Shown piece by piece: positions 7,565 through 55,927 of a DNA stretch of 64,000 nucleotides. This DNA comes from an uncultured virus (IMG/VR IMGVR_UViG_3300005290_000006) (taxonomy: Duplodnaviria > Heunggongvirae > Uroviricota > Caudoviricetes): the IMG/VR virus record IMGVR_UViG_3300005290_000006, positions 1 through 64,000 of that record. One strand, written 5' to 3'. The translations under genes were made by a program, and so were the position numbers. Position 1 is the stretch's first letter, and each line of letters begins with the position of its first letter. The notes beneath the pieces were generated by a model, which searched no databases, had not been told where the DNA came from, and saw only the letters and a list, made by a program, of their open reading frames with translations.

Positions 7565-9181
7565 ATGAAACCCACAAACCTTAAGCTGTTAGACCCCAAG
7601 TCTATCACGCCGGGTATCTTCAAAGAGGTTACGTCCACAGACGCCTTTGAAGGCATGACCCAGAATTTGAATGACGAGGGTCTTTACTCCTTAGAGATCT
7701 TCGGTAAGTTGGGCAGTAAAGAGCGCGATAAAACAGAAGCGTTCATTGACACAAAGCTCGGGCTCTTCAACCCAACCTACTTCAAAGCACTGACACAAAT
7801 AAAATCTCTGTACCTGGGCATTCTCAAAGGAACGGAATACGCGGTGTGGGATTCGGAGGCTAAAGATTTCATAAAATCCAACATCCTCGATGGGGAAACG
7901 GGTTTTGCTTTCTTTATGCGTCACTTCCACGAAATCGTTCCGGCCAGCACCGATTCTTACAAACGTAAGCAACGGGTGAAAATGGTCAGCCAGTTCAAGG
8001 ACGTTGCGGTCAGTAATAAGGTGTTGGTGATCCCAGCGGGTTTGCGGGATATCCAGTTCCAACCGAACGGCGCACCGACTGAGCCAGAAATCACTGAGTT
8101 GTATCGCAAGCTGATCTTTAAGACTCGGGTGATTAGCCTGGGTAGTGCTCGTGATGCCGAGAACCCGCTGTACGACAACGTGCGCTGGGGCTTGCAGAAT
8201 GCGTTCAACGATATCGATGCTTACCTCTTCGGCCTGACTGAAGGTAAAGGTGGTCTGTTTCAGCGTCGTCTGTCCACTCGGGGTGTGGTGTCGGGTACGC
8301 GTAACGTTATTACTGCGCGTAAGGTTTCCCGGGCTGACTTGTTCAAGACCAACGGGGTTAACCCTAACTCGACGGACATCGGTCTGTACCAAGCGCTGTT
8401 GAACAACCAGTACGTCTGTGTCCATGCGCTGCTCAGCAAGTACCTGCAAAACATCTTCACCTCAGGCTCGCTGACCATCAAGCTGGTGAACACCAAGACC
8501 CTCGAATACGAGTACGTCGAAGTGGCACCAAGCACCGTGGAGAAGTGGTCGACCTTTACCGGGTTGAATAAACTCTTCAACGGCTTCTCGAACATCCACC
8601 TGCGCAACAAAGAGATCATCATCGACAAACACTACCTCGCTCTCGTTTATGACGACGGTGAAGACGTGTGTGTGTTGCATGACATCAACGATCTCCCAGA
8701 AGGCAAGGATCGGAAGTTCGTTAAACCCATCACGTACATGGAACTGTTCTACCTGTCGTGTCAATCGACCATCATGGAGCAAATCACCCAGCAGACACGT
8801 TATCCGATCATTGGTATCGGCTCTATCGTTCCGGCGAAGGTGAACCTGGTGACGATTGCGGGGGCTAAGCCTCGGACCATTCGCACCACGGAATGGGAAG
8901 TCATGGAAACCTGTATGCGGTATCCGCATCGGACTGAGCGGCCGGATTATTTCGACGCCATGTCGGTTGACCCTTCCCGTGAAGCAGGCTACGACTCCGA
9001 CCACGACGGTGACCAGCTGAACAGCAACAGCGTAAACGCCGAGGACAGTAAGAACGAAGTTCATGCCCTCTTTGGCAAGCGCGAGTACTACATCAGTGGC
9101 AGTGGTCGTTTCCTTTATGACCCTGTTAACGAACCGATTCTGTTTATGTTGAAGGCTGCTACGAGTGGCCTTGAGGAGTAA
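7565..9181 (+). CDS. Virion RNA polymerase beta' subunit with catalytic DxDGD (phiKZ gp180-like)
   Basis: N-terminal EGLYSLEIFG, VIPAGLRD, TRNVITA, RYP and YDSDHDGD (8990-9013) motifs; synteny with the gp181-like and gp178-like genes. Confidence 0.9.
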   Translation: MKPTNLKLLDPKSITPGIFKEVTSTDAFEGMTQNLNDEGLYSLEIFGKLGSKERDKTEAFIDTKLGLFNPTYFKALTQIKSLYLGILKGTEYAVWDSEAKDFIKSNILDGETGFAFFMRHFHEIVPASTDSYKRKQRVKMVSQFKDVAVSNKVLVIPAGLRDIQFQPNGAPTEPEITELYRKLIFKTRVISLGSARDAENPLYDNVRWGLQNAFNDIDAYLFGLTEGKGGLFQRRLSTRGVVSGTRNVITARKVSRADLFKTNGVNPNSTDIGLYQALLNNQYVCVHALLSKYLQNIFTSGSLTIKLVNTKTLEYEYVEVAPSTVEKWSTFTGLNKLFNGFSNIHLRNKEIIIDKHYLALVYDDGEDVCVLHDINDLPEGKDRKFVKPITYMELFYLSCQSTIMEQITQQTRYPIIGIGSIVPAKVNLVTIAGAKPRTIRTTEWEVMETCMRYPHRTERPDYFDAMSVDPSREAGYDSDHDGDQLNSNSVNAEDSKNEVHALFGKREYYISGSGRFLYDPVNEPILFMLKAATSGLEE

Positions 9182-9183
9182 CA

Positions 9184-12100
9184 ATGCGGCTTCTTACGTA
9201 CAGTGAGTTCTTCAAGCTGTTTGTGCAGCGGAAGAAACAAGAGCTGATCGACCCTAACTTCATCGGGGTGAGCGAGATTGTCATGCCGAAGATGGCTGTG
9301 GTGCACTACGTACCTAAGCTGGCTACGGAGTACGGTCCTTCGGTGTCGGAAGCCTTCATCTCCAACTTCCCCGAAAATGTCTTCATCGAGTTCGTTCCAC
9401 GTTTCACCCCGGTCATGGGTCATGGTCGTGTGCTGGCTTTCGACGTCAAGAAAGCTATCCAGTCCTATCGGGCTAGCCATTACACCTACAACTGGACCAA
9501 GGACATCAACACGGTTTACCGCCGGGCTGATGCGCTGATTGTTAAGAACTACGGGATCGCAGACAAGACCTGGGCGCAGCGTGCCGCTACCTTCGTTAAC
9601 TTCGAGGTTCACTACAACCGTCTGAACATGCTGATGGAAGGTGTGAACACGGAAGCAGAGAAGGCGACACGGAAGCAGTTCTTGCGGCTGGAACTGCCGA
9701 TCAACATTCCACCTTACAAAGAGTTGATGGTCGACTATGAAAAGTATATCGGAAGCTTTAAAGAAGGCCTTCCAGTTCCTTCTAACCAATCTCTTCGGGT
9801 AACCAAGGGTGAGGGTTCGTACTGGCTGCTGGATTTGCTGGCGTTCCTGTTGGGTGATTACGAGTACAGTCAGTTCAACAAGCTGACCGCTCAGGCGCAG
9901 GAAGACCTTCACTGGATCTTCACCGCCAACAGCAAAGCGTTGATCATCAACGTCAAGACGATCAAGGAATGGCTCGATGAGCTAAACCCGAAAGTCAAGG
10001 ATGGCGAGGACAAGCCACACGTCGTCTCGCCTAAGCGCCTTAACGTCACCAAGCGTTTCTACTTGGCACTGATGGGCTTGGTCCGCGGGGTTGCGGCCGA
10101 GAAGGATTTGATTGACGAGGAGAAGAGCGATGGAACAGGAGGAGCAGGAAACTCCGCCAAAGAAGACGACTCTTCAGTGGTTGAAGGAAAGGCGGGAACT
10201 GCGAAAGGGCAAGGACGAGCATCCGGTAACGGAAAAGCAACCTCGGCTACTGGCAAAGATGAGCTTGTGGATGATTATTCTGATGATCGCAGCCTCGTTG
10301 ATGTTTTCAGCAGTAACAAGGGAAACAACGACCCACTGGTGGAGGGGGCACGAGACGAGGGAGAACATACTCCTGATGAAGTTGCTGGGGACTGGACATC
10401 CGCGGTAGACGACTCGTTGCTGGAGGTTGAAACCACCACGGTTGAAATCAGCACCAAGAAGGATGCTTTCCCTACTCCTGAAAGCGGCATCCTGGCAGCA
10501 CTGGAAGAACGTGCAGCGGAAGGTCGCCTGAGTGTCGCAGAACAGAACTTGTTCATGCGCAAAGGCATGCGTTATCAGAGCATTGAAATGCCTAACGGTC
10601 AATCGTTGGGTGAGTTCATGCAGATCTCTCCTGAGGAGATCAACAGTCTGGATGGCAAGATCGAAGCAAACTTCATCACAGTCCTTGATGAGAGTATGTT
10701 GCGTAGCCGTTCGGCTGTTCTGAAGCAAGATTACGCCCAGCGCTTCCTGCACAAAGATATCGCCAAGATGGTGGTCGGTATCCAGAACGCGGGTATCGCG
10801 GTATCAGATTATCGCCCGGACATCATCTCGGGTGTGGAAGGTTCGTACGACGTTCTCAACATCCAGCTCCATCCGGTTGATGGTAGCCAGAGCACGCACC
10901 AGATTCGTCTGCCGCGGGTTCAGAAGGATGCGACGTTTACTGTGGACGGCGTTAAGCAACACATGCAGCTGCAACGCATGGAACTGCCGATCCGCAAGAT
11001 CAACGCTTTCAAGGTTGCTTTGACCAGCTACTATGACCGCAAGCTCATGGTGCTGCGCAGTCAGAAGGTGGTGGACGATTACGGTCTGTGGCTGGTTAAA
11101 CAGATTCGTAACCGGGGTGAACGAAGAGAGGGTGTGATTCCTCCTTTGGTCTACAGCCTGGGTACAGGGTACAACCCTGAATACGTTTCTCCGCGTATCT
11201 ACAGCATTCTGGCGAAGAAGTTCAAGCACATTACCGTGACGGGCTTTGGGCAGCTGAATTTCCAGATTGACGAGTTGCTCGACAAGTACCCTGAGTACAA
11301 GCGCTACACCAAGAAAGATGCATTCCTGGTGGGCGTTAAAGATGGTCAGCCTCTGACGATCGATGGGTTCGGTAACCTCTTCCAAGGGGACACCGAAGTC
11401 GGTACGGTAGAAAGCCTGATGGGGATTAACCTGTCACGCGCACCTATCGAGTATGCGGTGATCAACATCAGCGGGTATTACTTCCCGATTGGTGTGGTGC
11501 TCTGCTACTACTTCGGTATCGACAAACTGATCCAGGTCACCAAGGCTACCACTCGCACCGTTCCAATGGGCACTAAGCCTAAGCTCGGTGAAGATGAGTA
11601 CGCCATTGCGTTCAACGACGAGTACCTGATCTTCAACCGTCGTGAGAAGTTGGCCAGCCTGATCTTCGGTGGTATGCCTAAGCTGAACAACATCGGTAAC
11701 TTCAGCCGTGTCGATCTCAACGAGAAAGGCATCTGGGTTCCGTTGATGGGCGACCCTAAGGTTAAGCCTCAGCAGTTCAAAGAAATGAAGAACCTGTTCG
11801 ACCTCTTCATTGACCCGGTCACCAAGGAAGAACTGGCGAAGATGGGTCACGCTACATCGTTCCACTACCTGTTGATCGATGCGGTGAAAATGCTGGAAAC
11901 GGATTACACCCGGCATGAAGTGGAGTTGGAAGAACAGCGTATCGTGGGCTACGAACGTTTTGCTGGTCACGTGTACCGGGAGCTGGTGAAAGCCATCCGT
12001 CAATACCGGAACAAAGGCAAAGAGCGTAAGCACACGATCGACATCAACCCTGAAGCGGTGATCCTCAACATCATTACCGATACCTCGGTGAACTTGGTGG

Positions 12101-13512
12101 AGGAGGTTAACCCAATCCACCAGTTGAAGGATCAGGAGGAAGTAACCTTCGGCGGTGTGGGTGGTCGTAGCGAAATCACGATGGTCAAGCGGGCACGTCA
12201 GCAGTTGGAAAGCTACCGGGGCAAGATCTCGGAAGCGAACAAGGACAGCGGTAAGGTAGGCTTCGTAACCTATCTGACTTCTGACCCTGGTATCAAAGAC
12301 TTCCGTGGCAACATCGCGGTGGGCGAGAAACCAACCAACGCTGGTCTGGTGTCGGTAACGGGTAACCTGCAATACGGTGTGGGTCACGATGACTCGAAAC
12401 GCTCTGTCTTTACCTCGACTCAAGCGAGTCAGGCAGTCAGTGCAATGAACTACACCCCAAACATCCTCCGTACAGGCTATGAGAACGTCGTAGCGCACCG
12501 TACGTCCGAACTGTACAGCAAGGTAGCCGCTGAAGCAGGCAAGGTCACTGAAGTGTCTGACGACGCTCTGCGGGTGACTTATAAGGACGGCACCACTGAC
12601 GTCTACCCTCTGGGGTTGGCAATCGGTGAGGCCAGCGGTGAGTACCATCGGCACACACGCGTTACCGACTTGAAACCCGGTGACACCTTTAATAAGGGTG
12701 ATGTGATCGGTTGGGATGTACAGTGGTTTGCTCGTGATCCGTTCTGCCCAGGTCAGGTGGCGTGGAAGGCAGGTCGCATGGTGCGGATTGCCTTGGTAGA
12801 AGATCAGGACGTGTACGAGGATAGCTTGGCTATCGCGCATTCATTGGCGATGGAAGGGGTTACTCCGTACATCAAGCCGAAGCGTTTTGCGATCGATGTG
12901 AATCAGAACATCGAGATGATGGTGAAAGAGGGTGATTCCGTTGACTACGACTCGATTTTATGCAACGTTGAAGACGACCATTTGGTCGCGGATACTGCTG
13001 AAAGCGCAATCGCAGCCGAGGTGAACAAACTGGGCATCCGTCAGGTTCGCTCCAGCCACCATGGCAAGGTCATCAAAATCGAAGTGGTGTACAACTCGCC
13101 GCTCGAGGAAATGTCGGACAGCGTTCGGAAGTTTATCAACGCTCAAGACAAAACCCGCAAGAAGAAAGCCGACATCGAAGGGTCCGATGTAACCAAGGGG
13201 GCTGTGTCCAACAGCCTGAACGTGAACAAGCCGATTCTGTCGCCTGGTAAAGCGTTCGTCACCATCCTGGTTGAATCGATGGACCCAAGCACCAACGCTG
13301 ACAAATATGTTCTCGCTAACCAGATGAAGGGCACAGTGGGTCGCATCATGCACAAACCCCTGATGACCGAAGATGGTCGAGAAGTCCTGATCAAGTCCAG
13401 CCTTAAAGGTATGTTTAACCGCATGGTACTGAGCTTCCGTAACAAGCTGGTAAGTTGTGAGCTCACTATCGCGGTGTCTAAACAGGCCATCGCCATTTAT
13501 CGAGGTAAGTAA
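9184..13512 (+). CDS. Virion RNA polymerase beta subunit (phiKZ gp178-like), 1442 aa
   Basis: beta-like motifs: ISEANKDSGKVG, HDDSKRSVFTSTQASQA, YEDS, DKYVLANQMKGTV; synteny. Confidence 0.9.
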   Translation: MRLLTYSEFFKLFVQRKKQELIDPNFIGVSEIVMPKMAVVHYVPKLATEYGPSVSEAFISNFPENVFIEFVPRFTPVMGHGRVLAFDVKKAIQSYRASHYTYNWTKDINTVYRRADALIVKNYGIADKTWAQRAATFVNFEVHYNRLNMLMEGVNTEAEKATRKQFLRLELPINIPPYKELMVDYEKYIGSFKEGLPVPSNQSLRVTKGEGSYWLLDLLAFLLGDYEYSQFNKLTAQAQEDLHWIFTANSKALIINVKTIKEWLDELNPKVKDGEDKPHVVSPKRLNVTKRFYLALMGLVRGVAAEKDLIDEEKSDGTGGAGNSAKEDDSSVVEGKAGTAKGQGRASGNGKATSATGKDELVDDYSDDRSLVDVFSSNKGNNDPLVEGARDEGEHTPDEVAGDWTSAVDDSLLEVETTTVEISTKKDAFPTPESGILAALEERAAEGRLSVAEQNLFMRKGMRYQSIEMPNGQSLGEFMQISPEEINSLDGKIEANFITVLDESMLRSRSAVLKQDYAQRFLHKDIAKMVVGIQNAGIAVSDYRPDIISGVEGSYDVLNIQLHPVDGSQSTHQIRLPRVQKDATFTVDGVKQHMQLQRMELPIRKINAFKVALTSYYDRKLMVLRSQKVVDDYGLWLVKQIRNRGERREGVIPPLVYSLGTGYNPEYVSPRIYSILAKKFKHITVTGFGQLNFQIDELLDKYPEYKRYTKKDAFLVGVKDGQPLTIDGFGNLFQGDTEVGTVESLMGINLSRAPIEYAVINISGYYFPIGVVLCYYFGIDKLIQVTKATTRTVPMGTKPKLGEDEYAIAFNDEYLIFNRREKLASLIFGGMPKLNNIGNFSRVDLNEKGIWVPLMGDPKVKPQQFKEMKNLFDLFIDPVTKEELAKMGHATSFHYLLIDAVKMLETDYTRHEVELEEQRIVGYERFAGHVYRELVKAIRQYRNKGKERKHTIDINPEAVILNIITDTSVNLVEEVNPIHQLKDQEEVTFGGVGGRSEITMVKRARQQLESYRGKISEANKDSGKVGFVTYLTSDPGIKDFRGNIAVGEKPTNAGLVSVTGNLQYGVGHDDSKRSVFTSTQASQAVSAMNYTPNILRTGYENVVAHRTSELYSKVAAEAGKVTEVSDDALRVTYKDGTTDVYPLGLAIGEASGEYHRHTRVTDLKPGDTFNKGDVIGWDVQWFARDPFCPGQVAWKAGRMVRIALVEDQDVYEDSLAIAHSLAMEGVTPYIKPKRFAIDVNQNIEMMVKEGDSVDYDSILCNVEDDHLVADTAESAIAAEVNKLGIRQVRSSHHGKVIKIEVVYNSPLEEMSDSVRKFINAQDKTRKKKADIEGSDVTKGAVSNSLNVNKPILSPGKAFVTILVESMDPSTNADKYVLANQMKGTVGRIMHKPLMTEDGREVLIKSSLKGMFNRMVLSFRNKLVSCELTIAVSKQAIAIYRGK
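10130..10408 (+). CDS. Candidate overprinted (+1 frame) 92-aa single-pass membrane protein nested in the RNAP beta gene
   Basis: GAGGAG SD 7 nt before ATG; 19-aa hydrophobic segment MSLWMIILMIAASLMFSAV after a basic N-terminus; the host frame here is a low-complexity linker with atypical codons. Confidence 0.55.
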   Translation: MEQEEQETPPKKTTLQWLKERRELRKGKDEHPVTEKQPRLLAKMSLWMIILMIAASLMFSAVTRETTTHWWRGHETRENILLMKLLGTGHPR

Positions 13513-13514
13513 CC

Positions 13515-14408
13515 ATGAACTACAGAAACTTCAACGGCATTCGCGATGTCCAAGTGATGTTGAAAGAAACCGGTCTTTACACTTCGTCCATTGATGGTAA
13601 GTGGGGAAGCGGCAGTTTGAACGCATCCATCTCTCTGGTGTCTGCGTATTTCCGCCAAGCGACCGGTCAGCCTCTGCCCAACATCCCGGCTTCGACTGTA
13701 CCGGGGGACGAGATGGCGCAAGTCATCGTTAAGCTCCAGGACCTGTTGAAAGCCGCCGGTCTGTATGACGGTAAAGTGGACGCTACCTACGGCATCGGTA
13801 CCAAGTCTGGTTTCCGTAAAGCCGCAGATGCCTACATCTTGGCTAACCGCCTGCCTCGTTATAAGGCTGCGTGGAGTGTCGTGGTGTCGAAGGAGTTTCT
13901 GGATGCGGTCATCGCGGGTTGCAAAGCCCGCAACTGGCCTGCTGAAGCGGTTGATTGGCTGATGTCCTGCATGCACTTCGAAAGCGGCGGGACGTTTAGC
14001 CCAACCAAACAGAACATGGCAGGCGCCAAGTACTTCGGGCTGATTCAGTTCGGTGACATGGCTGCTGCGGATCTCGGTACGACCACTGCTGAGCTGATCA
14101 AGTTGTCGCAGCTGGAGCAACTCAAGTGGGTCTTCAAGTACTTCGACATGTGGGCGAAGCGCGGCAAGACTTACACCCAGCTGGAAGACTTCTACCTCAC
14201 GATCTTTTACCCGAAAGCGGTGGGTGCGAAAGCCGACACTGTTATCTTCCGTAAGGACGTTGAAGCCGAGAAGAAGGGTTACGCCCAGAACAACGGCTTC
14301 GACTACAACAAGGACGGGGCGATCACCGTGGGCGAGATCAACTCCCGCCTGTACGACGTTTACTACAAAGGCATGGACACTGTGAATCGTGTTCTTGCTG
14401 CGGCTTAA
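13515..14408 (+). CDS. Modular endolysin: two N-terminal peptidoglycan-binding repeats plus a lysozyme-like/SLT catalytic domain (EL188-like)
   Basis: VQVMLKETGLY..IDGKWG and LQDLLKAAGLY.GKVDATYG..T repeats; catalytic MHFESGGTFSP...GLIQF; DYNKDGAIT motif. Confidence 0.88.
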   Translation: MNYRNFNGIRDVQVMLKETGLYTSSIDGKWGSGSLNASISLVSAYFRQATGQPLPNIPASTVPGDEMAQVIVKLQDLLKAAGLYDGKVDATYGIGTKSGFRKAADAYILANRLPRYKAAWSVVVSKEFLDAVIAGCKARNWPAEAVDWLMSCMHFESGGTFSPTKQNMAGAKYFGLIQFGDMAAADLGTTTAELIKLSQLEQLKWVFKYFDMWAKRGKTYTQLEDFYLTIFYPKAVGAKADTVIFRKDVEAEKKGYAQNNGFDYNKDGAITVGEINSRLYDVYYKGMDTVNRVLAAA

Positions 14409-14438
14409 CTTCATTCTTCTGTCAAGGGTACGTTCATC

Positions 14439-14612
14439 ATGAACCAACAGACTTTCATTCAAGACACGGTGACTATCGCTAACACGGTAGAACTGGTGAA
14501 AAGCACTATCGACAAGGTTGGGTTGGAGTTCATCGCTCCGTTGGACCCGGCTATCCAGGACGAACACATCAGCAAGGCCATCACCGCTGCTGTGAAAGGG
14601 GAAGCGCAATGA
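14439..14612 (+). CDS. Small hypothetical protein, 57 aa (not in ORF track)
   Basis: MNQQTFIQDTVTIANTVELVKSTIDKVGLEFIAPLDPAIQDEHISKAITAAVKGEAQ; typical codon usage; TGA overlaps the next ATG (ATGA). Confidence 0.7.
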   Translation: MNQQTFIQDTVTIANTVELVKSTIDKVGLEFIAPLDPAIQDEHISKAITAAVKGEAQ

Positions 14613-16156
14613 TTCGAGCATCCAGTGTTGCCATCGCTGAAGCCATCGCTGTAGCGGTCAACAGCGACACCCCTGTCAAGGCCAAAGACTTGGTGGCGGG
14701 TCTGAACGAACAGAGCTACGGTTCTGCTGCTTACGGCGCTGATTTCCGTGACGAGATCGTTCGCGTTACCACCCACACCACCGCGCACTCCGCTGTTAAG
14801 GAAGCCACCAGTGATGCACTGGCTGCGACCATCCGCGGTGCGTTCGACACCATCAAGAACTACGGCGTGCCTTTCGCGAAAGCACTGAGCGCCGAGATCG
14901 GTATGTTGTATACCTCCGATCGTCTGCAACAGCTGGCCTTCAGTCAGCTGCGCTACAACTACGTCAACGTCGATGATCCTTTCTTCGACTCGCCGATCTA
15001 CCCGACTGATGTGAAGAACACTTCGCTCGAGTTCACCAGCATTTCGCTGGATGCGCTGAAGCGTTTGGAATTCAACTACGTCTCGGAAGATGACGTGAAA
15101 GAGTTCGTCAACACTCAGCATCCTGATGTTGTCGAGATCATGGAGAACAGTGACTACGACGCCTCGCGCGCCGCCAACAGCATCACTGACTGGTACGACC
15201 TGTGCCAGCTCTTCGCGAACAAGAACGACGTGTTCAACTTCGGCGTGATCAAGAGCCTGGAAATCAACCGTCTGCTCAAGATGTATGTTGTGCTGACCAA
15301 GATGTATGCCCAGGAAGATCCGGTCAAGTGGCTGACCAAAGGTACGCTGGCTGACTACCGTCAGTTCGTGAACCTGCTGTGGAACGGCATGACCCGTTAC
15401 CTGCTGGTGCTCAAGCAAGTGGCTAACGCTTATAAACAGCGTGTGGTGGCCTACGCCGAGCTCGAGCCTGTGACCCTGGCTGATCATCAGCACTCCGACT
15501 ACTCGGGCGCTCGCTTCATCTCCGGCAACGTGCAGGTGTTCTACACCAACCAGGCGCTGGCCACTCTGGAATCCAGCGGCGTCAGCTTCAACGAATGGCT
15601 GGTCGCGATCCAGTACGCTCGTTTCAACAAGGTGCAGCTGGAACAAGTGGCTACCTTGGGCGATGCGGCAACCGTCAAGCGTTGGGCCGGTGAGTACTAC
15701 CAGTCCATCGACACCGCACTGAGCGCCAAAGCCAAAGTCATGTTCGTCAAGACCGCTGCTGCTCGCGCTCTGAAGTTCCTGGGCGAGACCCCGCTGTTGA
15801 ACGAACGCATCCGTGCTGTGTGCCCACAAGGCGTGCTGGTTCAGGATTGGTTCGAACAGAGCATGGGTCTGGAATACGAGAAAGCGTATTACGCTGTATC
15901 GAAAGCCCTGGCCGCTCACAGCGACAACGGCGCGACCCTGGACTCCGGTGTGGGTGACGGCGTGGTGATCCATGCGCTGATGGGTGGTTCTTTGGTTCCT
16001 GTGTTCCTGCGGGCTCTGAAGTGCAACCTGGCGGCCGAGATCGTTGAAGCCACCTACGTGTCGGTAGAACTGAACGACGACATCGTGGCGAAGCGTCAGC
16101 GCCTCCACAAGTCCCTGATCAAGCTGATCGTCAAAAACTCCATCGGCGGGAAGTAA
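14609..16156 (+). CDS. Conserved phiKZ-like protein, probably virion-associated (gp177-like by synteny), 515 aa
   Basis: Long ORF with strong codon bias, lying between RNAP beta and the protease. Confidence 0.6.
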   Translation: MIRASSVAIAEAIAVAVNSDTPVKAKDLVAGLNEQSYGSAAYGADFRDEIVRVTTHTTAHSAVKEATSDALAATIRGAFDTIKNYGVPFAKALSAEIGMLYTSDRLQQLAFSQLRYNYVNVDDPFFDSPIYPTDVKNTSLEFTSISLDALKRLEFNYVSEDDVKEFVNTQHPDVVEIMENSDYDASRAANSITDWYDLCQLFANKNDVFNFGVIKSLEINRLLKMYVVLTKMYAQEDPVKWLTKGTLADYRQFVNLLWNGMTRYLLVLKQVANAYKQRVVAYAELEPVTLADHQHSDYSGARFISGNVQVFYTNQALATLESSGVSFNEWLVAIQYARFNKVQLEQVATLGDAATVKRWAGEYYQSIDTALSAKAKVMFVKTAAARALKFLGETPLLNERIRAVCPQGVLVQDWFEQSMGLEYEKAYYAVSKALAAHSDNGATLDSGVGDGVVIHALMGGSLVPVFLRALKCNLAAEIVEATYVSVELNDDIVAKRQRLHKSLIKLIVKNSIGGK

Positions 16157-16162
16157 TAAGCC

Positions 16163-16888
16163 ATGGATATCAGCCACCTGGTCAGAAACGATACCAAAAT
16201 TCACAACGCCTACACCGTTCTTGAAGATGGTTCTGTTGTAGCGAACCGTCCGATGGAAATTCACCTGCCTAAACGGTTTGTGGAAAACGGGATGGCTGTT
16301 GTGAGTGAGACGGTTTGGACTTCGGCTGTGCTGGGGCTGGTCATTCCGGGGGAGTGTTACGCTCCCCTGTTGGCTTTGGTTGACATCACCTTGGTGCCTC
16401 TCAGCATCCGTGAAGCAGCTATTGACGGGGTTCAGTACCTCATCCTCGAGTTCGGTAAGGGCGATACCCTGATCGAGAACCTGGACGTGTTGCAGGACCC
16501 CAACAAGCCTCACCAGTATTACCTGGAGTTCAACCTGTACTCCAAAAAGCCTTGGTACATGAACAAGGATGACCTGACTTCCCTTTATGACTACGCCGAG
16601 TACGAGTGTGGCGGTAAGGTGGGTAGCAGCCCTCAAGTAATGCGCGTATTCAACTCGTTGCAGTTTCGGGATCCTGATAACCTGGATGTCGCTTACCGGC
16701 ACAGCAAAGCCATGCTGGAAGGTCGGCCTCCGGTGATCGTGGGTCTCAACAACTCGGCGATGTTGATTGACGGTACCATCCCTAAACTGTTGGGCGGGTA
16801 TCTTCAGGACAACACCCTGGCAGCTATCGTTAACCCTGATACCAAAGTCACCGATCTGGAAGAGATCATCAAAGGGGTTCCAAAATGA
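16163..16888 (+). CDS. Conserved phiKZ-like virion protein (gp176-like by synteny; possibly virion-RNAP associated), 241 aa
   Basis: Directly upstream of and translationally coupled to the prohead protease. Confidence 0.55.
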   Translation: MDISHLVRNDTKIHNAYTVLEDGSVVANRPMEIHLPKRFVENGMAVVSETVWTSAVLGLVIPGECYAPLLALVDITLVPLSIREAAIDGVQYLILEFGKGDTLIENLDVLQDPNKPHQYYLEFNLYSKKPWYMNKDDLTSLYDYAEYECGGKVGSSPQVMRVFNSLQFRDPDNLDVAYRHSKAMLEGRPPVIVGLNNSAMLIDGTIPKLLGGYLQDNTLAAIVNPDTKVTDLEEIIKGVPK

Positions 16889-22218: not shown

Positions 22219-23421
22219 ATGCTACTCAAGACCATTGCCAAAAACTCCGAGTTCACCTACGGCGTTCACAAGGACGTATTGGCTGAAGTCGTCGCCGACA
22301 ACGCGTTCACCTTGTTGCCGCAGGACAAGTTGCTGCATGCCTTGAAACACCTCGACACCGGCGTCATGGGTTCGGTCCGCGCGCTGAACCATCTGAAAGA
22401 ACTGCTGCGCCAAGCAATCGCCTACGGCCTGACCTACAAGGTTGAAGTTGTTGAAGGCGGTCGTATCCGTCTGGTGTTCGCGGTCTACAAGCGTAACAAG
22501 ACCAACAACGAAGGTCGCCTGTCGTCCAAACTGTCCCTGGGTGCTGGTGGTCATATCGAAGGCGATGACGTCTCGTACCACAGCCTGCAAGACAACGACG
22601 AAATCATGGTCACCAGCGCGATCGACATGCTGGAAACCATCGACGACTCGTACATCCGCGAATACGTGGAAGAAGTCCTGCTGGCAACCCGTGACGGCCT
22701 CGACCTGACTGCCGGTATCGTGGGCGCCGCTAACGCGACCGGCTTCCAGAAAGTCGGCTTCGTTATGGACAGCAAAGAAGAGCACGGTTACGTGGGTAAC
22801 ATCCACTTCGGCGTGGTCTACGCACTCGACGCAGGCGCAGACACCGCTGCATTCGAAATGCGTGAACCGCAAAACGAAGCGATCGCCTGGGCCAGCGCCG
22901 AAGAACTGCAAACCGACGCGATGTTCCACGATCCTGAAGTTCCGTTCGAACCGTGGTCGGCAATGATCGTTGCGCAGATCAAAGAACTGGAGGTGTACCT
23001 CCTGGACACCTTCCACAACATCGACCGCAATACCCTGACTGTCGAAGTTGATCCGGCCGATCCAGAACCAGAGCGTACTGTTGCCCTGGCTCGACAAGCG
23101 TTCAATGAAGCCCAAGCGATTGACATTCGTCAACAACTCGAAACCATCGCCAAAGAAGCATGGGCGACTGTCACCGCCGATACTTCCCTGGACGTGGCGG
23201 GTGCCGCAAAGGCTGTTGAGAAACTGACCAACGATGTCATCCTGGAAAAGTTGGGGCAGTACATCGATAGCGGTTTCCGCGTGGACGTAACCCCGCTGGC
23301 CGGTCAGGATCAAGACGGTCACTTCTTCACGATCGACATTACCGCGACCAAGTTGTCCGGCGAAGTGGTTGAAGTGCCAACCAAGCAATACCTGGTAACT
23401 GTTGAAGCCAGCGAAGCGTAA
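22219..23421 (+). CDS. NUDIX-family phosphoesterase (COG4112-like) with C-terminal extension, 400 aa
   Basis: YKR...EGRL..KLSLGAGGHIE, REYVEEV, VGNIHFGVV and FEPWS motifs. Confidence 0.75.
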   Translation: MLLKTIAKNSEFTYGVHKDVLAEVVADNAFTLLPQDKLLHALKHLDTGVMGSVRALNHLKELLRQAIAYGLTYKVEVVEGGRIRLVFAVYKRNKTNNEGRLSSKLSLGAGGHIEGDDVSYHSLQDNDEIMVTSAIDMLETIDDSYIREYVEEVLLATRDGLDLTAGIVGAANATGFQKVGFVMDSKEEHGYVGNIHFGVVYALDAGADTAAFEMREPQNEAIAWASAEELQTDAMFHDPEVPFEPWSAMIVAQIKELEVYLLDTFHNIDRNTLTVEVDPADPEPERTVALARQAFNEAQAIDIRQQLETIAKEAWATVTADTSLDVAGAAKAVEKLTNDVILEKLGQYIDSGFRVDVTPLAGQDQDGHFFTIDITATKLSGEVVEVPTKQYLVTVEASEA

Positions 23422-29332: not shown

Positions 29333-29770
29333 ATGTCCAAAACAACGTACGATATCGCAATGAACCTGGCACTGTTGATCATTTATGCGGTGCTTATCAT
29401 TCTGGTCATCCAACGTGTTATGGAAGGTCGAGGGTTCTCTTACCTCGTCGAAAGGACTCCAACCGGTATGGTCTTCACCTACAAGCTGGGTATCTATGCC
29501 GGTTGTGTAAGGATCACACGTGACAATGCTCTGGAGTATCCCAATGTCGTGCGCAAGGCCGATGGTTGGGAAATCGTATTTCCAGGGTGGTACACTGACA
29601 AACAGGTGTACCGATTCATCATGAAGACTGAGCCCCGCCACGGCAAGAATCAGTCCCACGCAAAAGACCTGGAGATATTCAGGCAGGTGGTGTTGATGAA
29701 TAATTACTCTCTTACTTGTATTCGGGGTGTCTTGTTTACGGAGGACCGTAGAAAGTCTTCTAGAACCTGA
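29333..29770 (+). CDS. Membrane-anchored hypothetical protein, 145 aa
   Basis: AGGAGG SD; N-terminal TM segment IAMNLALLIIYAVLIILVI. Confidence 0.7.
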   Translation: MSKTTYDIAMNLALLIIYAVLIILVIQRVMEGRGFSYLVERTPTGMVFTYKLGIYAGCVRITRDNALEYPNVVRKADGWEIVFPGWYTDKQVYRFIMKTEPRHGKNQSHAKDLEIFRQVVLMNNYSLTCIRGVLFTEDRRKSSRT

Positions 29771-51862: not shown

Positions 51863-53941
51863 ATGGGCGCTCAAGCTCTCCACCTTTCACCCTTTACCGA
51901 AGTCAATTATTCGGCAGATCGTAACGTCGTCAGGCATTACCACGAACAAGCGGCGATGTATTTGGCCCTTGTGTACAAGTACGATTACGACTATATCCTG
52001 AACCTGATCAAAACAGTCTTCGTTCCAAATGAGAACGGCTTTAAAGAAGCCAAGTTCAAGGTTTTCCAAAAGAACAAGCATGGAGATCGGGTTCCGATCA
52101 TCCAGCCAGCGCGTGAGTTCTTCCAGACAGTGGAGGACAACAACTGGCATTTGTCCCCATCGTTTGTTGCTTACAAGAACACGATGGAAGAGCAATCGGT
52201 CAACGCCTCAGGTACGGAGATCTTCATTGAGTTCCGTCGTCTGTATAAAGGCAAACGTGGCGAAGTACCGAAAGGCTCTGAAGCTTGGAAAGCGTTTAAC
52301 GAAATCCAGAACGCCCTGAAGATCTTCAACAACGCCCAATCGGGTGGTATGTCGTCTTCGGGTACGCCGTTGTTCAACAAGTCGGGCCACACCTCACTGA
52401 CCAGTACCTGCCGTGCGGTAACCTCGACAGCGAACCTGACCAACGAACGACTGATCACCGGCAACCGTCTCTTGTTGACCTACAACAAGACGATGGAGTA
52501 CTTCATTGCACAGCTGCGGTACGCGGACCGTGACCTGATCCAATCGGTCATCACCGAATACAACATGAGCTATGCAACCATCCCGCAAGTGATGGACATG
52601 GTAATCCGCTGCACGTCCTATTACTGGAACAGCCCGGGTAACCTGCGCGCGATTGAAATGTTCTTGGCGGACTTGGATCCGTTGGAACTGACGATCCTGT
52701 TGTGCTCGATGGACTTGCGTGGTCTGTACACCACCAACAAAGACCTGATGAAACGGTACTTTGCTGAATGGTGCCTGATCCCGGAGATCCCAGAAGGCGC
52801 AGTGGCTGAGGACTTCCCTAAGCCCGCTAACGGCGACTACAAGATTCTCTGCATCACCAAGCTGGGCAAGAAGGCAACACCGCTCCAGATCAACCACCTT
52901 AACCAGTACCACATCAGCCTGGAGAAGAAGTGGGACAGCTTTATTCGTGCATTCCTCAAATCGAAGATTCCGCCGACTGGTTTGTTCGATGTGAAAGAGA
53001 TGGTGCGTGAGTCGGTACTGACTTCCGACACTGACTCCTCGATTTACAGTGTTGACTTGATCATTGACGATTATGCCAGTGATGTCGATACGGGCTTGAT
53101 GTTCAACGGGGTACTGACCTACTTCATTCGTTCGATCGCCGTAGACCAGCATGCACGTCTCAGCAAGAACATGAACGTGGCGCACAAGTACCTGCACCGC
53201 CTGAACATGAAGAACGAATACCTGTTTGGCTCGTATGTAACGACGTCCATGTCGAAGCACTACTTTGCCTTGCAGCTCATGGTGGAAGGTATCCTCAACG
53301 ACCATGCCGACCTGGAACTGAAGGGTGTGCATTTACGTGGCGTGAAGATTGCGCTGCTGGTACGGGACTTCACCACGAAACTCATGCGGAAGATCTTGGA
53401 TGCCCTGTACGGTCGTTCTAAGCTCGATGCGCCTGAGCTGCTGCACGAAGTGGCCAACATCGAACGTGATCTGATCAAGGACATCGAAGAAGGTGGCTGG
53501 GGCTGGTTGACGAAGAACGGGATTAAGGAAGAAGAAAGCTACACCAACCCTGAATCATCGATCTTCTATTACCACGAAATGTGGGAGAAGGTGTTTGCCG
53601 ATAAATACGGTAAAGCACCGGTCCTACCGTACAAGGCCTACAAAGTGAACTTGGCATTGAACAACAAGACCAAGATCAAAGCGTTCTTCGACGAACACCG
53701 GGAGAACCACATTGTGGCTAACCTGGAACAGTACATCAGTGCGCGCAGCAACCTGACCTCGGTTTACATTCCGGTGGACATGATCACTGCGATGGGCGGG
53801 ATCCCGAAAGAGATCATGCCGATTGTGGACGTGCGGTTGCTGATCTCCCAAAACTTGAAGTCGGTGTATGCCATCTTGGAAACCTTGGGTCTGTTCATTA
53901 TGAACTCCAAGACATCCCGTCTGGTGTCTGACGAACATTGA
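51863..53941 (+). CDS. Family-B DNA polymerase, polymerase subunit of the split phiKZ-type enzyme (gp50-like)
   Basis: QNALKIFNNAQSG (motif B-like), TSDTDS (motif C), KHYF and LKGVHL; no exonuclease domain seen. Confidence 0.88.
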   Translation: MGAQALHLSPFTEVNYSADRNVVRHYHEQAAMYLALVYKYDYDYILNLIKTVFVPNENGFKEAKFKVFQKNKHGDRVPIIQPAREFFQTVEDNNWHLSPSFVAYKNTMEEQSVNASGTEIFIEFRRLYKGKRGEVPKGSEAWKAFNEIQNALKIFNNAQSGGMSSSGTPLFNKSGHTSLTSTCRAVTSTANLTNERLITGNRLLLTYNKTMEYFIAQLRYADRDLIQSVITEYNMSYATIPQVMDMVIRCTSYYWNSPGNLRAIEMFLADLDPLELTILLCSMDLRGLYTTNKDLMKRYFAEWCLIPEIPEGAVAEDFPKPANGDYKILCITKLGKKATPLQINHLNQYHISLEKKWDSFIRAFLKSKIPPTGLFDVKEMVRESVLTSDTDSSIYSVDLIIDDYASDVDTGLMFNGVLTYFIRSIAVDQHARLSKNMNVAHKYLHRLNMKNEYLFGSYVTTSMSKHYFALQLMVEGILNDHADLELKGVHLRGVKIALLVRDFTTKLMRKILDALYGRSKLDAPELLHEVANIERDLIKDIEEGGWGWLTKNGIKEEESYTNPESSIFYYHEMWEKVFADKYGKAPVLPYKAYKVNLALNNKTKIKAFFDEHRENHIVANLEQYISARSNLTSVYIPVDMITAMGGIPKEIMPIVDVRLLISQNLKSVYAILETLGLFIMNSKTSRLVSDEH

Positions 53942-53949
53942 GGTTGAGC

Positions 53950-54312
53950 ATGAGAAACAACAAAGTAACTATGCTTCATAACCCCAGAAATGGGGACCAT
54001 CTGTTTCTCCATAAACCGAGTGGATTGCAGTTTGGTGTTGAAGGTAACTCCCCGGATGCTTACTTGGTGGACTGCGTAGCGTTCCCCAACCGCGAAGGCT
54101 TCGATCCGCTCCACCAGCCGGGGCATCTGGACGTACTGGAAGATTTTAAAGTTATCACCCGCTTCAACTTCAGCGAGTTTGTCTTCCACCCATGTTGTCC
54201 CAACCAAATGAACCAGTTACTTGCGTTCATTAAGTCGTGCCCGTGCCTTGAAGAGCCAGAGATTGTTGTGTCCGAATCCTTCTTCAATCACGTGTACGGC
54301 CTCACTAAGTAG
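53950..54312 (+). CDS. Hypothetical protein, 120 aa
   Basis: GAGG SD before ATG 53950. Confidence 0.65.
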   Translation: MRNNKVTMLHNPRNGDHLFLHKPSGLQFGVEGNSPDAYLVDCVAFPNREGFDPLHQPGHLDVLEDFKVITRFNFSEFVFHPCCPNQMNQLLAFIKSCPCLEEPEIVVSESFFNHVYGLTK

Positions 54313-54322
54313 GAGGTGCATC

Positions 54323-54649
54323 GTGTCGACTATTACTGTTGCAAAGTGTGACCGTGGCTACTACGTCAAAGGCAACCAGTCTCCGACCGCTCCAATCCCG
54401 GGTCCTGAGGAGTCCTGGCTGTTACAGGTCACCCCGGCCATCGAAGGAGCCACCGTGCGGTTCGACAACACCGTACCCATGGTGGTGGAAGACGCCCAAG
54501 GCCGGAAGCTGAATGTTCACTACCGCAATGCCGACAACCTGATTACCCTGATCGAAGATATGGCCGAGCCTGGTAAGCAGTTGGACGAGATCGAGATCGA
54601 CGTAGAAAGCGGTTTCTGGTTCCTCACCGCCGGTAACAACCGGGTGTAA
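54323..54649 (+). CDS. Hypothetical protein, 108 aa
   Basis: AGGAGG SD before GTG 54323. Confidence 0.75.
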   Translation: MSTITVAKCDRGYYVKGNQSPTAPIPGPEESWLLQVTPAIEGATVRFDNTVPMVVEDAQGRKLNVHYRNADNLITLIEDMAEPGKQLDEIEIDVESGFWFLTAGNNRV

Positions 54650-54654
54650 TCATG

Positions 54655-54833
54655 CATAACCCATCTCCCAGAGGAGACCCAAGGTCTGCCTCTAGGGAGT
54701 GGGTTTGTTTGGTTATCTCATCTAGAATGGACCGATCCGTCCGCATGAGCGGAGGGAATCTTTCCCACAGAATGGTTAGTAAATAAATAACTACTTCCAA
54801 GCGCCCCTTGTGAGGGCGCCCGGAGGGGTTATG
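54655..54833. ncRNA. Candidate structured element filling a convergent intergenic gap
   Basis: CATAACCC/GGGTTATG closing stem about 170 nt apart, with internal hairpins. Confidence 0.35.
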
Positions 54834-54835
54834 TT

Positions 54836-55927
54836 TCACACGTTGATTTTGTTCAACTCGAAGACCGTATTGGCCAAGTCGGTGAAGTGTTTCCGGGTAA
54901 ACACATCCGGGATACGCTGGTAGTTGTTGACCCGCGTTGGATGGGTTCTGTTGATCACGGTGTTGATGTCTGCGGCTTTGTATCCCTTCTGATTAGCAAT
55001 CGTCAGGTACAGAGCGTACAGCTTCATGATCGCCGGTTCCCAAACCCAGGCAGTCTGTGAGAACAACGCAGCCTTGCCAGCCCGCACGTAGTTGAAGTAC
55101 GGCTGCTTATAGATGCTGAGCAGCTGTGCCATCAAGTGGTTGAGGTCCATGAGGCGGTTATGCGTAAAGCAATGCACCAGGAACTCCACGTACTCGCGCA
55201 GCAGCTTGGTCTCGCTCACGGTAATGAACGTCACTGTGTCGGTCTGGATCAGCTCTGCTAAGGGCTTTCCGTTGACCAGGTGTTCGTATAGCACGTTGAG
55301 TACTGCCAGTTGGTTTTGAATCAGCTGAGCATTTACCAACGGGAAGTGACATACATAAGCGGAGATACCACCGTCGTACTGAGGATCCCGCATGTACTTC
55401 CACCAACCCACCGCCAGCTCCACCAGGTTCAGTCCCATGACGGCAAAGCCGCTCTGGTTCATCGGTTCCATTTGGCGGATTGCATTGTGCTTGTAGCTAT
55501 GCCGGGTGCTGGTGCTGTATAAAGGAACGATGGGGTGCAGGGTGGAGAAGTCAAGTGCCTTCTCCTTGTACACCTTGTCGTTCTCGATCAGACACCAGTG
55601 TTCAATGGTGCCCTCGCGGAAGAAACCCCGCAAGATGGGCGACCCCACGTGATTCAGTGAGGTAATGTTAAACAGCGTGCACAATGAATTAGCACGGAAC
55701 CGTGTGTACTCGACGACGTAATCCAGATCCCACTCAGGGTCAATACTTAACTGTTGGAGCAATCCTACCAGCAAGTGTTCGTTTTCGAGATTGAAGATGT
55801 TCACAGCGACATAGTCGCGAAAGGCCTTGCGGTTATATTCGGTTTGGCGTTGCAGGTTTCCCAAGCTTCCGTAGTTGACTTTAGGGTACACAAAGGAAGA
55901 AGGATTCGGATAAGACAAAGTGAGCAT
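54836..55927 (-). CDS. Conserved phiKZ-like protein divergent from chimallin (gp52-like by synteny), 363 aa
   Basis: Position and orientation in the DNA pol - chimallin - RNAP block. Confidence 0.7.
   Translation of the reverse strand: MLTLSYPNPSSFVYPKVNYGSLGNLQRQTEYNRKAFRDYVAVNIFNLENEHLLVGLLQQLSIDPEWDLDYVVEYTRFRANSLCTLFNITSLNHVGSPILRGFFREGTIEHWCLIENDKVYKEKALDFSTLHPIVPLYSTSTRHSYKHNAIRQMEPMNQSGFAVMGLNLVELAVGWWKYMRDPQYDGGISAYVCHFPLVNAQLIQNQLAVLNVLYEHLVNGKPLAELIQTDTVTFITVSETKLLREYVEFLVHCFTHNRLMDLNHLMAQLLSIYKQPYFNYVRAGKAALFSQTAWVWEPAIMKLYALYLTIANQKGYKAADINTVINRTHPTRVNNYQRIPDVFTRKHFTDLANTVFELNKINV

Follow-up and report, generated by a model that had tools for sequence, protein, structure and literature searches.

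The window analysed here, 64,000 nt of DNA from an uncultured virus of the Caudoviricetes (positions 1 to 64,000 of the IMG/VR record IMGVR_UViG_3300005290_000006), contains a gene for the beta-type subunit of a virion RNA polymerase (RNAP), and the segment 10130..10408 on the plus strand of this gene is very probably a second, overprinted gene. It is read in the +1 frame relative to the RNAP gene (the host gene), lies in the part of that gene which encodes a linker, has a Shine-Dalgarno (SD) sequence and an ATG of its own, and would encode a protein of approximately 90 residues with a single transmembrane (TM) helix, while selection in the overlap would act mainly on the +1 frame. An initial annotation made from the sequence had already proposed that a single-pass membrane protein is encoded here by overprinting, that the shifted frame is under selection and that the RNAP linker drifts. 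Conservation, codon-position, substitution and profile tests, which are described below, bear this proposal out: the element is conserved, it is under frame-specific selection, and its product has a characteristic hydrophobic architecture.

The embedded open reading frame (ORF) comprises 92 codons and the stop codon TAG (10406-10408). In the list of ORFs it is given as 10112..10408, starting from an upstream TTG. The ATG at 10130 is preceded, with a spacer of 7 nt, by the SD-like sequence GAGGAG (10117..10122, plus strand), which was read from the sequence and is encoded by Glu-Glu codons of the host gene. The initial annotation had recognised the same start signals and the same 92-codon frame, and its 92-residue translation is identical to ours. 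At positions -5 to -16 an SD-like motif was found at the embedded ATG in 22 of 24 loci, versus 3 of 36 out-of-frame ATGs in the host gene.

Viral contigs were searched with the RNAP protein, which yielded 17 loci; of these, L003 was left out (it covers residues 598-1442 only) and L009 (phage EL) was handled via its annotated record. The alignment thus has 16 rows, the window and 15 full-length IMG/VR loci, with 59-100% identity in the host protein; for statistics the duplicates and near-duplicates L002, L005, L007, L016 and L018 were dropped, which left 11 distinct sequences. In all 16 rows the ATG stands in one alignment column, the +1 frame is free of stop codons, and the stop codon stands in one column again. 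The RNAP linker of the relatives is alignable and poorly conserved. The comparison of relatives that had been proposed earlier therefore gave a positive outcome, since the SD sequence, the ATG, the stop-free +1 frame and the TM segment are kept while the linker in the RNAP frame diverges.

The positions at which the sequences differ show which frame is under selection. Pairwise divergence at host codon positions 1, 2 and 3 amounts to 0.445, 0.419 and 0.304 in the overlap, versus 0.241, 0.178 and 0.479 in the rest of the gene. When the whole gene was scanned in 92-codon windows, the ratio of position-1 to position-3 divergence exceeded 1 only at host codons 277-437, and in 24-codon windows host position 3, which is position 2 of the +1 frame, was the least variable one only in windows starting at codons 313-361. 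The three positions are approximately equal at codons 385-408, where the conserved host motif G-D-W-T-S-x-V-D-D starts. From codon 409, directly 3' of the +1 stop, the normal positional pattern resumes, and the inversion maps to approximately 10120-10400.

Single-base differences were also classed by their effect in each frame. The window offers 170 opportunities for changes that are silent in the +1 frame and alter the host protein, and 190 for the reverse. The corresponding counts of observed differences were 26 versus 3 for the pair L004/L006, 27 versus 7 for L011/L012, 27 versus 5 for L012/L014, 25 versus 13 for the window and L004, and 1816 versus 1103 over all 55 pairs. This excess of substitutions that are silent in the +1 frame and change the RNAP argues for a nearly neutral RNAP linker and a constrained +1 frame.

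In line with this, two hidden Markov models (HMMs), one per frame, that were built from identical nucleotides of the 11 sequences performed differently against distant phages. The +1 HMM scored 72.3 bits in EL (host-frame HMM 23.3 bits), 50.8 bits in Erwinia phage RisingSun (15.3), 28.3 bits in Miami (9.1), 21.2 bits in Yubaba (14.1) and 19.6 bits in OBP (15.0). For pTD1 it gave 17.4 bits and the host-frame HMM gave nothing, and for FishSpeaker the values were 6.6 bits (15.1 for the matched stretch alone) and 8.1 bits. When five whole phage genomes were searched in six frames, the +1 profile matched each of them once, at the RNAP site, with E values from 1.8e-22 to 1.7e-5. Altogether, four independent measures agree that the +1 frame is constrained and that the RNAP linker behaves as nearly neutral.

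Several observations weigh against a gene in the +1 frame. In a test with 2000 synonymous shuffles, performed for 16 lineages with the host protein and the codon pool fixed, the +1 span stayed open in 41% of the shuffles for the window and in 3.7-89.5% across the lineages. This is because a hydrophilic linker of Gly, Asp and Ser gives few chances of +1 stops, and the open +1 frame alone is thus not more than chance, given the host protein sequence. The identity of the +1 products exceeds that of the host-frame products in only 71 of 120 pairs (means 0.301 and 0.280), and it does not exceed it when Miami, pTD1, Yubaba, OBP and D6 are compared with the window; for the distant Miami, pTD1, OBP and D6 the identities in both frames are equally low, and D6 was detected by neither of the two profiles. 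The best-conserved +1 motif, L-M-F-S, coincides with the conserved host motif L-x-D-V-F, and for this reason its conservation is not creditable to one frame. Further, the SD sequence and the ATG consist of host Glu-Glu and Asp/Asn-Gly/Glu codons, so that host constraints contribute to their conservation.

The hydrophobic segment behaved differently from the open frame in the shuffle test. The combination of an open frame with a hydrophobic segment of at least the observed strength had P <= 0.0035 in 11 of the 16 lineages and P values of 0.01-0.10 in L006, pTD1, D6, Yubaba and OBP. The hydrophobic segment therefore depends on particular synonymous codon choices.

Two variants inside the ORF, at 10325 and 10343, were found in contigs of other metagenome runs and are too few for a population test. 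The variant 10343 A>C leaves Arg72 of the +1 product unchanged and replaces Glu by Ala in the RNAP frame, and 10325 A>G alters both frames. Nine runs labelled as food, plant or soil metagenome (two named studies and one unnamed) carry near-identical DNA, with 0.84-0.89 of the sampled words, and one of them may be the source sample. A single run recorded as RNA contained a small share of the sampled words, but none of its sequence aligned to the stretch, a result that is uninformative with respect to expression.

All 22 distinct members of the protein family consist of a basic N-terminal domain, one hydrophobic stretch and a C-terminal tail. The N-terminal domain has 11-46 residues and a net charge of +2 to +15, which is positive in 22 of 22. 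The best 19-residue Kyte-Doolittle window has a value of 1.58-2.76 and reaches TM strength in every member (strongest window per sequence), and the stretch usually ends with L-(M/I)-F-(S/T). The tail of 25-64 residues (30 in the window protein) has a net charge of -2 to +7 and carries a helix motif of the type E-x-R-E...L...G.

For the window protein, a basic N-terminal helix is predicted at residues 14-28 (LQWLKERRELRKGK; 10169..10213, plus strand), with Trp17 and Arg21 invariant in the protein alignments A1 and A2 and a low AlphaFold2 confidence of the block (predicted local distance difference test, pLDDT, 55-60). The predicted TM helix corresponds to residues 44-62 (MSLWMIILMIAASLMFSAV; 10259..10315, plus strand), with a Kyte-Doolittle value of 2.19 and a block pLDDT of 76-87, and ends in a conserved S-x-M-x-S / L(M/I)F(S/T) motif, in which Ser56, Met58 and Ser60 are invariant in A1. 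The tail, residues 63-92 (10316..10405, plus strand), contains the helix motif E-x-R-E-x-x-x-L ... G, with Arg77 and Gly89 invariant in both A1 and A2, and EL, RisingSun, Miami, Yubaba, OBP and FishSpeaker have this motif as well. In the 16-sequence alignment no variation is seen at Trp17, Arg21, Ser60, Arg77 and Gly89. AlphaFold2, run with an 11-row alignment, predicted helices at 14-28 and 37-86, with a mean pLDDT of 65.7, a predicted template modelling score of 0.28 and the best values over the TM segment, which is spanned by a single long helix. This model is modest; it is consistent with a bitopic helical protein and unsuited to a fold search.

The distribution of charges suggests that the family is likely oriented with the N-terminus in the cytoplasm and the C-terminus outside (N-in/C-out), since the N-terminal domain is positive throughout. 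The initial annotation had assigned this topology to the window protein. It is likely to apply to the family, while for the window protein itself the charge bias is weak, with +2 on both sides of the TM helix, and the charges are not decisive.

No match to a family in Pfam, NCBIfam or PHROGs was found, holin families included, except that one of the 16 members of A2 matched phrog_13924, a family of unknown function, with E=0.0053. Two spanin identities were considered and rejected. The 92-residue product of the window has no Cys and consequently no lipobox, as would be needed for an o-spanin, and the i-spanin design, an N-terminal TM domain (TMD) with a long periplasmic coiled coil, does not agree with a TM segment that starts at residues 12-47 and a tail of 25-64 residues.

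The embedded ORF is present at the homologous site in 12 of the 19 named phages whose gp178-like gene was fetched, namely EL, RisingSun, Miami, KPN8, pTD1, Yubaba, FishSpeaker, OBP, SXP01, ZPAH34, AH04 and D6. It was not seen in the gp178-like genes of AH06, RTH11, RSL2, OMKO1 (phiKZ-type), Proteus phage 10 and SPFM16, nor is it in phiKZ, and KpZh_1 gave no match to the +1 profile in a profile search. Identity of the RNAP to that of the window is 36-58% in phages with the ORF and 28-33% in phages without it, as far as identities are listed (AH04 is not among them). This pattern suggests one origin of the embedded ORF within the family. The ORF is unannotated in all inspected records of the 12 phages that carry it, just as had been predicted for standard annotation.

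A tblastn search with the Yubaba-type peptide gave 12 records at E <= 1e-3, all 12 of them inside RNAP genes, and added Sureiya, N1M2, Kc263 and Survivor. With the window peptide the matches were weak only (best E 0.1 over 20 records, 15 of which are in jumbo-phage RNAP genes), and when the host gene was compared with the phage collection by megablast there was no match, the relatives being found via protein searches. Among 5.8 billion proteins there was one match, a 60-residue fragment named 'hypothetical protein', and a profile search of 1.84 billion representative proteins retrieved six unnamed ORFs of the same family with 60-90 residues. A repetitive protein of 682 residues in the latter search was judged spurious, and the best score in an Atlas search, 0.86, is below the reliability mark of that search. 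The protein-database searches revealed no free-standing homologue. Of 13 viral-contig loci obtained with the peptide profile, 12 sit on contigs already reached via the RNAP protein.

The host gene (9184..13512, plus strand) encodes 1442 residues and aligns end to end (residues 4-1442, E=0) with phrog_3148, 'RNA polymerase beta subunit'. Its protein shows 58.5% identity to that of EL and 57.1% to that of RisingSun (tblastn), and its phiKZ counterpart is gp178 (4356 nt), annotated as 'RNA polymerase beta subunit, structural head protein'; the earlier label 'gp178-like' is thus correct. Upstream lies a gene for a phiKZ-gp180-like RNAP subunit of 538 residues (7565..9181, plus strand; phrog_2986, E=1.7e-206), in agreement with the phiKZ order gp180 ... 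gp178. The gp178-like gene is followed by an endolysin-type gene and then by gp177-, gp176- and gp175-like virion and protease genes.

The overlap coincides with a low-complexity Gly/Asp/Ala/Ser linker in the host frame (10120..10408, plus strand; host codons approximately 313-408), which stands out by aberrant codon usage and positional variability. Across the overlap 15 Gly, 14 Asp, 10 Ala and 10 Ser are found among 94 host codons. GGA accounts for 10 of 15 Gly codons there versus 1% of 91 in the remaining host gene, CGA for 2 of 3 Arg codons versus 4%, and A occupies the third host position in 32% of the codons versus 11% elsewhere in the gene. A Gly/Asp/Ser linker with otherwise rare codons was also what the initial annotation had described. 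An acidic low-complexity linker is present at the same place in phiKZ-type gp178, which has no embedded ORF.

Downstream of the RNAP gene, a modular endolysin or transglycosylase of the EL188 type with 297 residues is encoded at 13515..14408 on the plus strand (phrog_4928, phrog_196 and phrog_17001, endolysin; Pfam PG_binding_1 at the cut-off). It thus lies on the same strand approximately 3.1 kb from the embedded ORF, where an endolysin had been noted before. The gene has 47% identity to the EL-group gene directly 3' of the RNAP gene and 50.8% to RisingSun gp231, and in OBP the gene that follows the RNAP gene is gp279, annotated as endolysin. Muralytic activity of EL188 and OBPgp279 was measured, as stated in PMC3352856. 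Late expression of the locus is expected from the virion role of the surrounding genes.

According to the initial annotation no holin or spanin is visible beside the endolysin. Locally this is true; complete relatives, however, carry a spanin pair and a protein with two TM segments (2-TM protein) at another locus. In EL (gp109-111) and Miami (gp050-052) an i-spanin/o-spanin pair adjoins a conserved 2-TM protein at a distance from the RNAP locus. EL gp111 has an N-terminal TM segment and a coiled coil, and the Miami homologues of gp111 and its neighbours, gp052 and gp051, are annotated as i-spanin and o-spanin. In the relative G001 a signal peptide and an LSGC lipobox are encoded by an overlapping ORF, the o-spanin lipobox of the clade being LSGC / ILVTG|C. 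The 2-TM protein (EL gp109, Miami gp050, phrog_14084) has a charged C-terminal tail and is encoded convergently to the spanin pair. It was not found in phiKZ, and we consider it, although it is unannotated, a candidate holin of the conventional kind for this clade. In the 133-kb record we found no homologue of EL gp108-gp112, the spanin/2-TM cluster, and at a completeness of 58% this absence is uninformative. The cluster has the coordinates 115514-116631 in EL (L062), 53713-54959 in Miami (L074) and 630-1887 in L068; the spanins are annotated only in Miami.

Based on these data, the following course of events can be envisaged. The polymerase of the phage itself would transcribe the locus late, giving a long message over the gp180-like, gp178-like and endolysin genes, and occasional internal initiation at the SD sequence and the ATG at 10130 would lead to small amounts of the 92-residue protein. 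Judged from its sequence, this protein would be inserted into the inner membrane, with the basic N-terminal domain probably in the cytoplasm and the C-terminal helix probably in the periplasm. The RNAP frame could tolerate the overlap, since only a flexible linker is affected. In this part of the gene, purifying selection would act mainly on the +1 frame and would leave the RNAP linker nearly free to vary.

It is very improbable that the frame is untranslated and owes its conserved openness merely to an antisense ORF or to constraints that bear on the mRNA or, through composition and codon bias, on the RNAP linker. Such an explanation could refer to the frame being open in 4-90% of the synonymous shuffles, to the long spurious alternative-frame ORFs without family match that are common in this genome, and to the antisense ORF 10174..10752, which overlaps the element. 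It cannot account for changes that are nonsynonymous in the host frame outnumbering synonymous ones by 26 to 3, for host position 3 being least variable only between the +1 ATG and the stop, or for a +1 profile that scores up to three times as many bits as the one from the host frame, and the hydrophobic segment depends on specific synonymous choices. The antisense ORF was rejected as the source of the signal: the anomaly ends at 10408 and not at 10752, and an antisense gene predicts host position 2 to be least variable, whereas the observed order, host 3 < 2 < 1, fits the +1 sense frame. Even less credible is a programmed frameshift, by which the N-terminal domain of the RNAP (approximately 315 residues) would be truncated and fused to a membrane anchor instead of a free 92-residue protein being made. 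The overlap is indeed on the same strand and in the +1 frame, and in L006/L007 this frame extends without a stop for a considerable distance upstream of the ATG. In the window, L004/5 and L011-L016/L018, however, +1 stops occur 6-12 codons upstream of the ATG, the ATG is retained in all loci and the SD-like motif in 22 of 24, and the positional anomaly starts at the ATG, not upstream. Only a small share of the probability falls to the two together, that is, to the element being no gene or a frameshift product.

With respect to the function of the overprinted gene, the most likely single specific role, which we put forward tentatively and at less than even odds, is that of a late inner-membrane component of lysis control that works with the EL188-type endolysin, either a holin-like protein of class III topology or the partner or antiholin of another holin. 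The ORF is on the same strand and in the gene directly upstream of the endolysin gene, among virion and late genes. Against a role in lysis speaks that the embedded protein has no detectable sequence similarity to the phiKZ holin gp142 (phrog_14484; hhalign probability 0.15%), that the charge bias of the window protein is weak, and that the clade has the spanin pair with the adjacent conserved 2-TM protein elsewhere. The latter is also present in AH06, which has an endolysin gene after the RNAP gene and no embedded ORF. The embedded gene is therefore dispensable for the RNAP-endolysin layout; it is a clade-specific addition and not an indispensable part of it. A real overprinted membrane protein with a task outside lysis, such as superinfection exclusion or a block of incoming DNA, a membrane factor in virion assembly or in the early infection vesicle, or modulation of the host membrane, is a serious possibility, if short of an even chance. 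It would agree with the missing lysis-family signature, with the spanins and the 2-TM holin candidate that the clade already has, and with the layout kept in AH06, and the N-terminal helix, which is basic and amphipathic and contains the invariant Trp and Arg, could bind nucleic acid, the membrane or a partner protein. There is, however, no positive pointer to any one such role; exclusion or early-vesicle factors are expected among early genes or virion proteins, whereas the embedded ORF is on a message of late virion genes, and the protein is far too small for its sequence to suggest a packaged role.

That the embedded protein is the holin proper, the sole hole-former that releases the endolysin and an analogue of the phiKZ class IIIb holin with a short N-terminus, is improbable. 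It has one TMD, likely the N-in/C-out topology and a tail of approximately 30 residues as in gp142, and its gene is transcribed in the same direction as that of the endolysin. No holin is annotated in the inspected regions of EL, RisingSun and Miami, and the words holin, spanin and lysis do not occur in the Miami genome announcement (PMC7844079). By tblastn, relatives of gp142 were found only in 65 Pseudomonas records of the phiKZ/PhiPA3/201phi2-1 type, and gp142 homologues were absent from genomes with the ORF (EL, RisingSun, Miami, pTD1, OBP) at tblastn or first-look sensitivity, an empty result that proves little. The protein has no homology to gp142, however, and the conserved 2-TM protein adjoining the spanin genes, which occurs in AH06 without an embedded ORF, is a more conventional candidate. 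It is attractive, if rather doubtful, to assume that the overprinted gene was born de novo in the disordered linker of the RNAP at the base of the EL/RisingSun/Miami/pTD1/OBP branch of nucleus-forming jumbo phages and founded a new lysis-timing family of holins or antiholins. If the lysis-timing interpretation holds, this would be the first lysis component in a jumbo phage, apart from spanins, reported as a 'gene within a gene', embedded upstream of the endolysin gene.

The overprinted gene is of interest for several reasons. Out-of-frame embedded genes are a textbook trait of tiny phages and are attributed to genome compression; here such a gene is conserved in genomes of more than 200 kb without this pressure, and it lies inside an essential RNA polymerase subunit. 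Overprinted small membrane proteins are familiar from phiX174 E, MS2 L and Rz1, so that the phenomenon as such is well known, and new are the protein family and the setting, an essential RNAP subunit of a jumbo phage in which selection is dominated by the +1 frame. In our literature searches, which covered an open-access library, we found no paper describing an overlapping gene in the RNAP gene of a jumbo phage. A conserved protein family is thereby added to phages that are studied for their nucleus-like compartment, for their endolysins (EL188, OBPgp279) and for phage therapy, and it provides a concrete candidate for lysis control in phages of the EL and OBP type, where this control has yet to be described. 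With outgroups that have no ORF at hand, the locus also offers a well-defined natural example of a gene born de novo within a linker that is disordered. Last but not least, changes to the RNAP linker, whether mutations or engineered ones, can hit a second gene even if they appear harmless to the RNAP.

Some further features of the window and its relatives deserve mention. The record of 133 kb (G+C content approximately 52%) is a viral metagenome record of the completeness given above and contains ambiguous bases, which appear as X in the translation of an ORF at G000:C1 127279-127989, beyond the window, so that parts of it are of lower quality. Synteny with phiKZ (gp180, gp178, gp177, gp176 and the gp175 protease) is preserved in the window. 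In the clade the gp178-like gene is followed by the endolysin gene and then by the gp177-like gene, whereas phiKZ has nothing but the small gp177.1 at this place (L084, phiKZ 181621-181818); the phiKZ endolysin is located in the gp141-144 cassette. In EL and FishSpeaker the gp178-like gene consists of two annotated coding sequences and is interrupted near residue 1065 by an insertion of approximately 400-460 nt (L019, EL 199961-200419; L025, FishSpeaker 188990-189395), which resembles an intron or a mobile insertion and has no relation to the embedded ORF. Two genes of the window are common to the start of the EL genome: 28067-28516 encodes 149 residues with a signal-peptide-like N-terminus, and 29333-29770 encodes 145 residues with an N-terminal TM anchor and 38% identity to the EL ORF at 1894-2298. 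Finally, the window contains many long alternative-frame ORFs without family match, among them very long antisense ORFs opposite real genes at 13497-14621 (minus strand, 374 residues), 14459-16702 (minus strand, 747 residues) and 22222-23388 (minus strand, 388 residues). The first two have no PHROG match, whereas their sense genes match. These ORFs look like chance products of the codon pattern, and ORF length alone is uninformative in this genome.

Among known systems, the phiKZ 'class IIIb' holin gp142 is similar in that it is a small protein with one TMD and a C-terminal tail of approximately 30 residues and is expressed together with an endolysin by a phiKZ-like jumbo phage; its N-in/C-out topology is the one considered likely for the family of the embedded protein. 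As described in PMC12894885, this holin of the phiKZ lysis cassette has one TMD, a cytoplasmic N-terminal domain and a small periplasmic tail in N-in/C-out orientation, and its function as a holin was shown by complementation in lambda and by triggering with dinitrophenol. It differs from the embedded protein in its length of 131 residues and in a cytoplasmic helical domain of approximately 80 residues that binds the regulator gp143, whereas the N-terminal domain of the embedded protein has 11-46 residues and is strongly basic. Moreover, gp142 is encoded by a free-standing gene in a spanin-holin-regulator-endolysin cassette and not by an embedded ORF.

The class III holin gp t of T4 also has one TMD in N-in/C-out orientation, and in T4 the timing of lysis is set by small partners in the membrane and the periplasm. 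The likeness of the embedded protein to gp t and to T4-type antiholins consists in one TMD with this topology, the orientation of the embedded protein being the one suggested by its family. The T4 protein T has a large periplasmic domain, and its homology is confined to T4/T5-like phages, according to PMC12894885. No similarity of the embedded protein to them was found in the family libraries. Closer in genetic arrangement are Rz1 and the o-spanins, which are encoded in the +1 frame of Rz or the i-spanin (lambda; phiKZ gp141/gp141.1; Miami gp052/gp051): here, too, a gene within a gene on the same strand of a double-stranded DNA phage gives rise to a membrane-associated product. The o-spanins are, however, outer-membrane lipoproteins with a signal peptide and a lipobox Cys, while the window protein has no Cys and a central TM segment, and its host gene encodes an RNAP subunit and not a functional partner.

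The genes E of phiX174, which lies inside D, and L of MS2, which extends across the coat and replicase genes, are out-of-frame lysis genes that overlie essential genes. Both encode membrane proteins of approximately 75-91 residues with one hydrophobic domain, and in L the N-terminal domain is basic. Compared by description and not by sequence, they resemble the embedded ORF as overprinted genes for a small membrane protein. The difference lies in the genomic context: phiX174 and MS2 are under extreme pressure on genome size and achieve lysis with a single gene and without an endolysin, while the gene described here belongs to genomes of more than 200 kb that have an endolysin and spanins.

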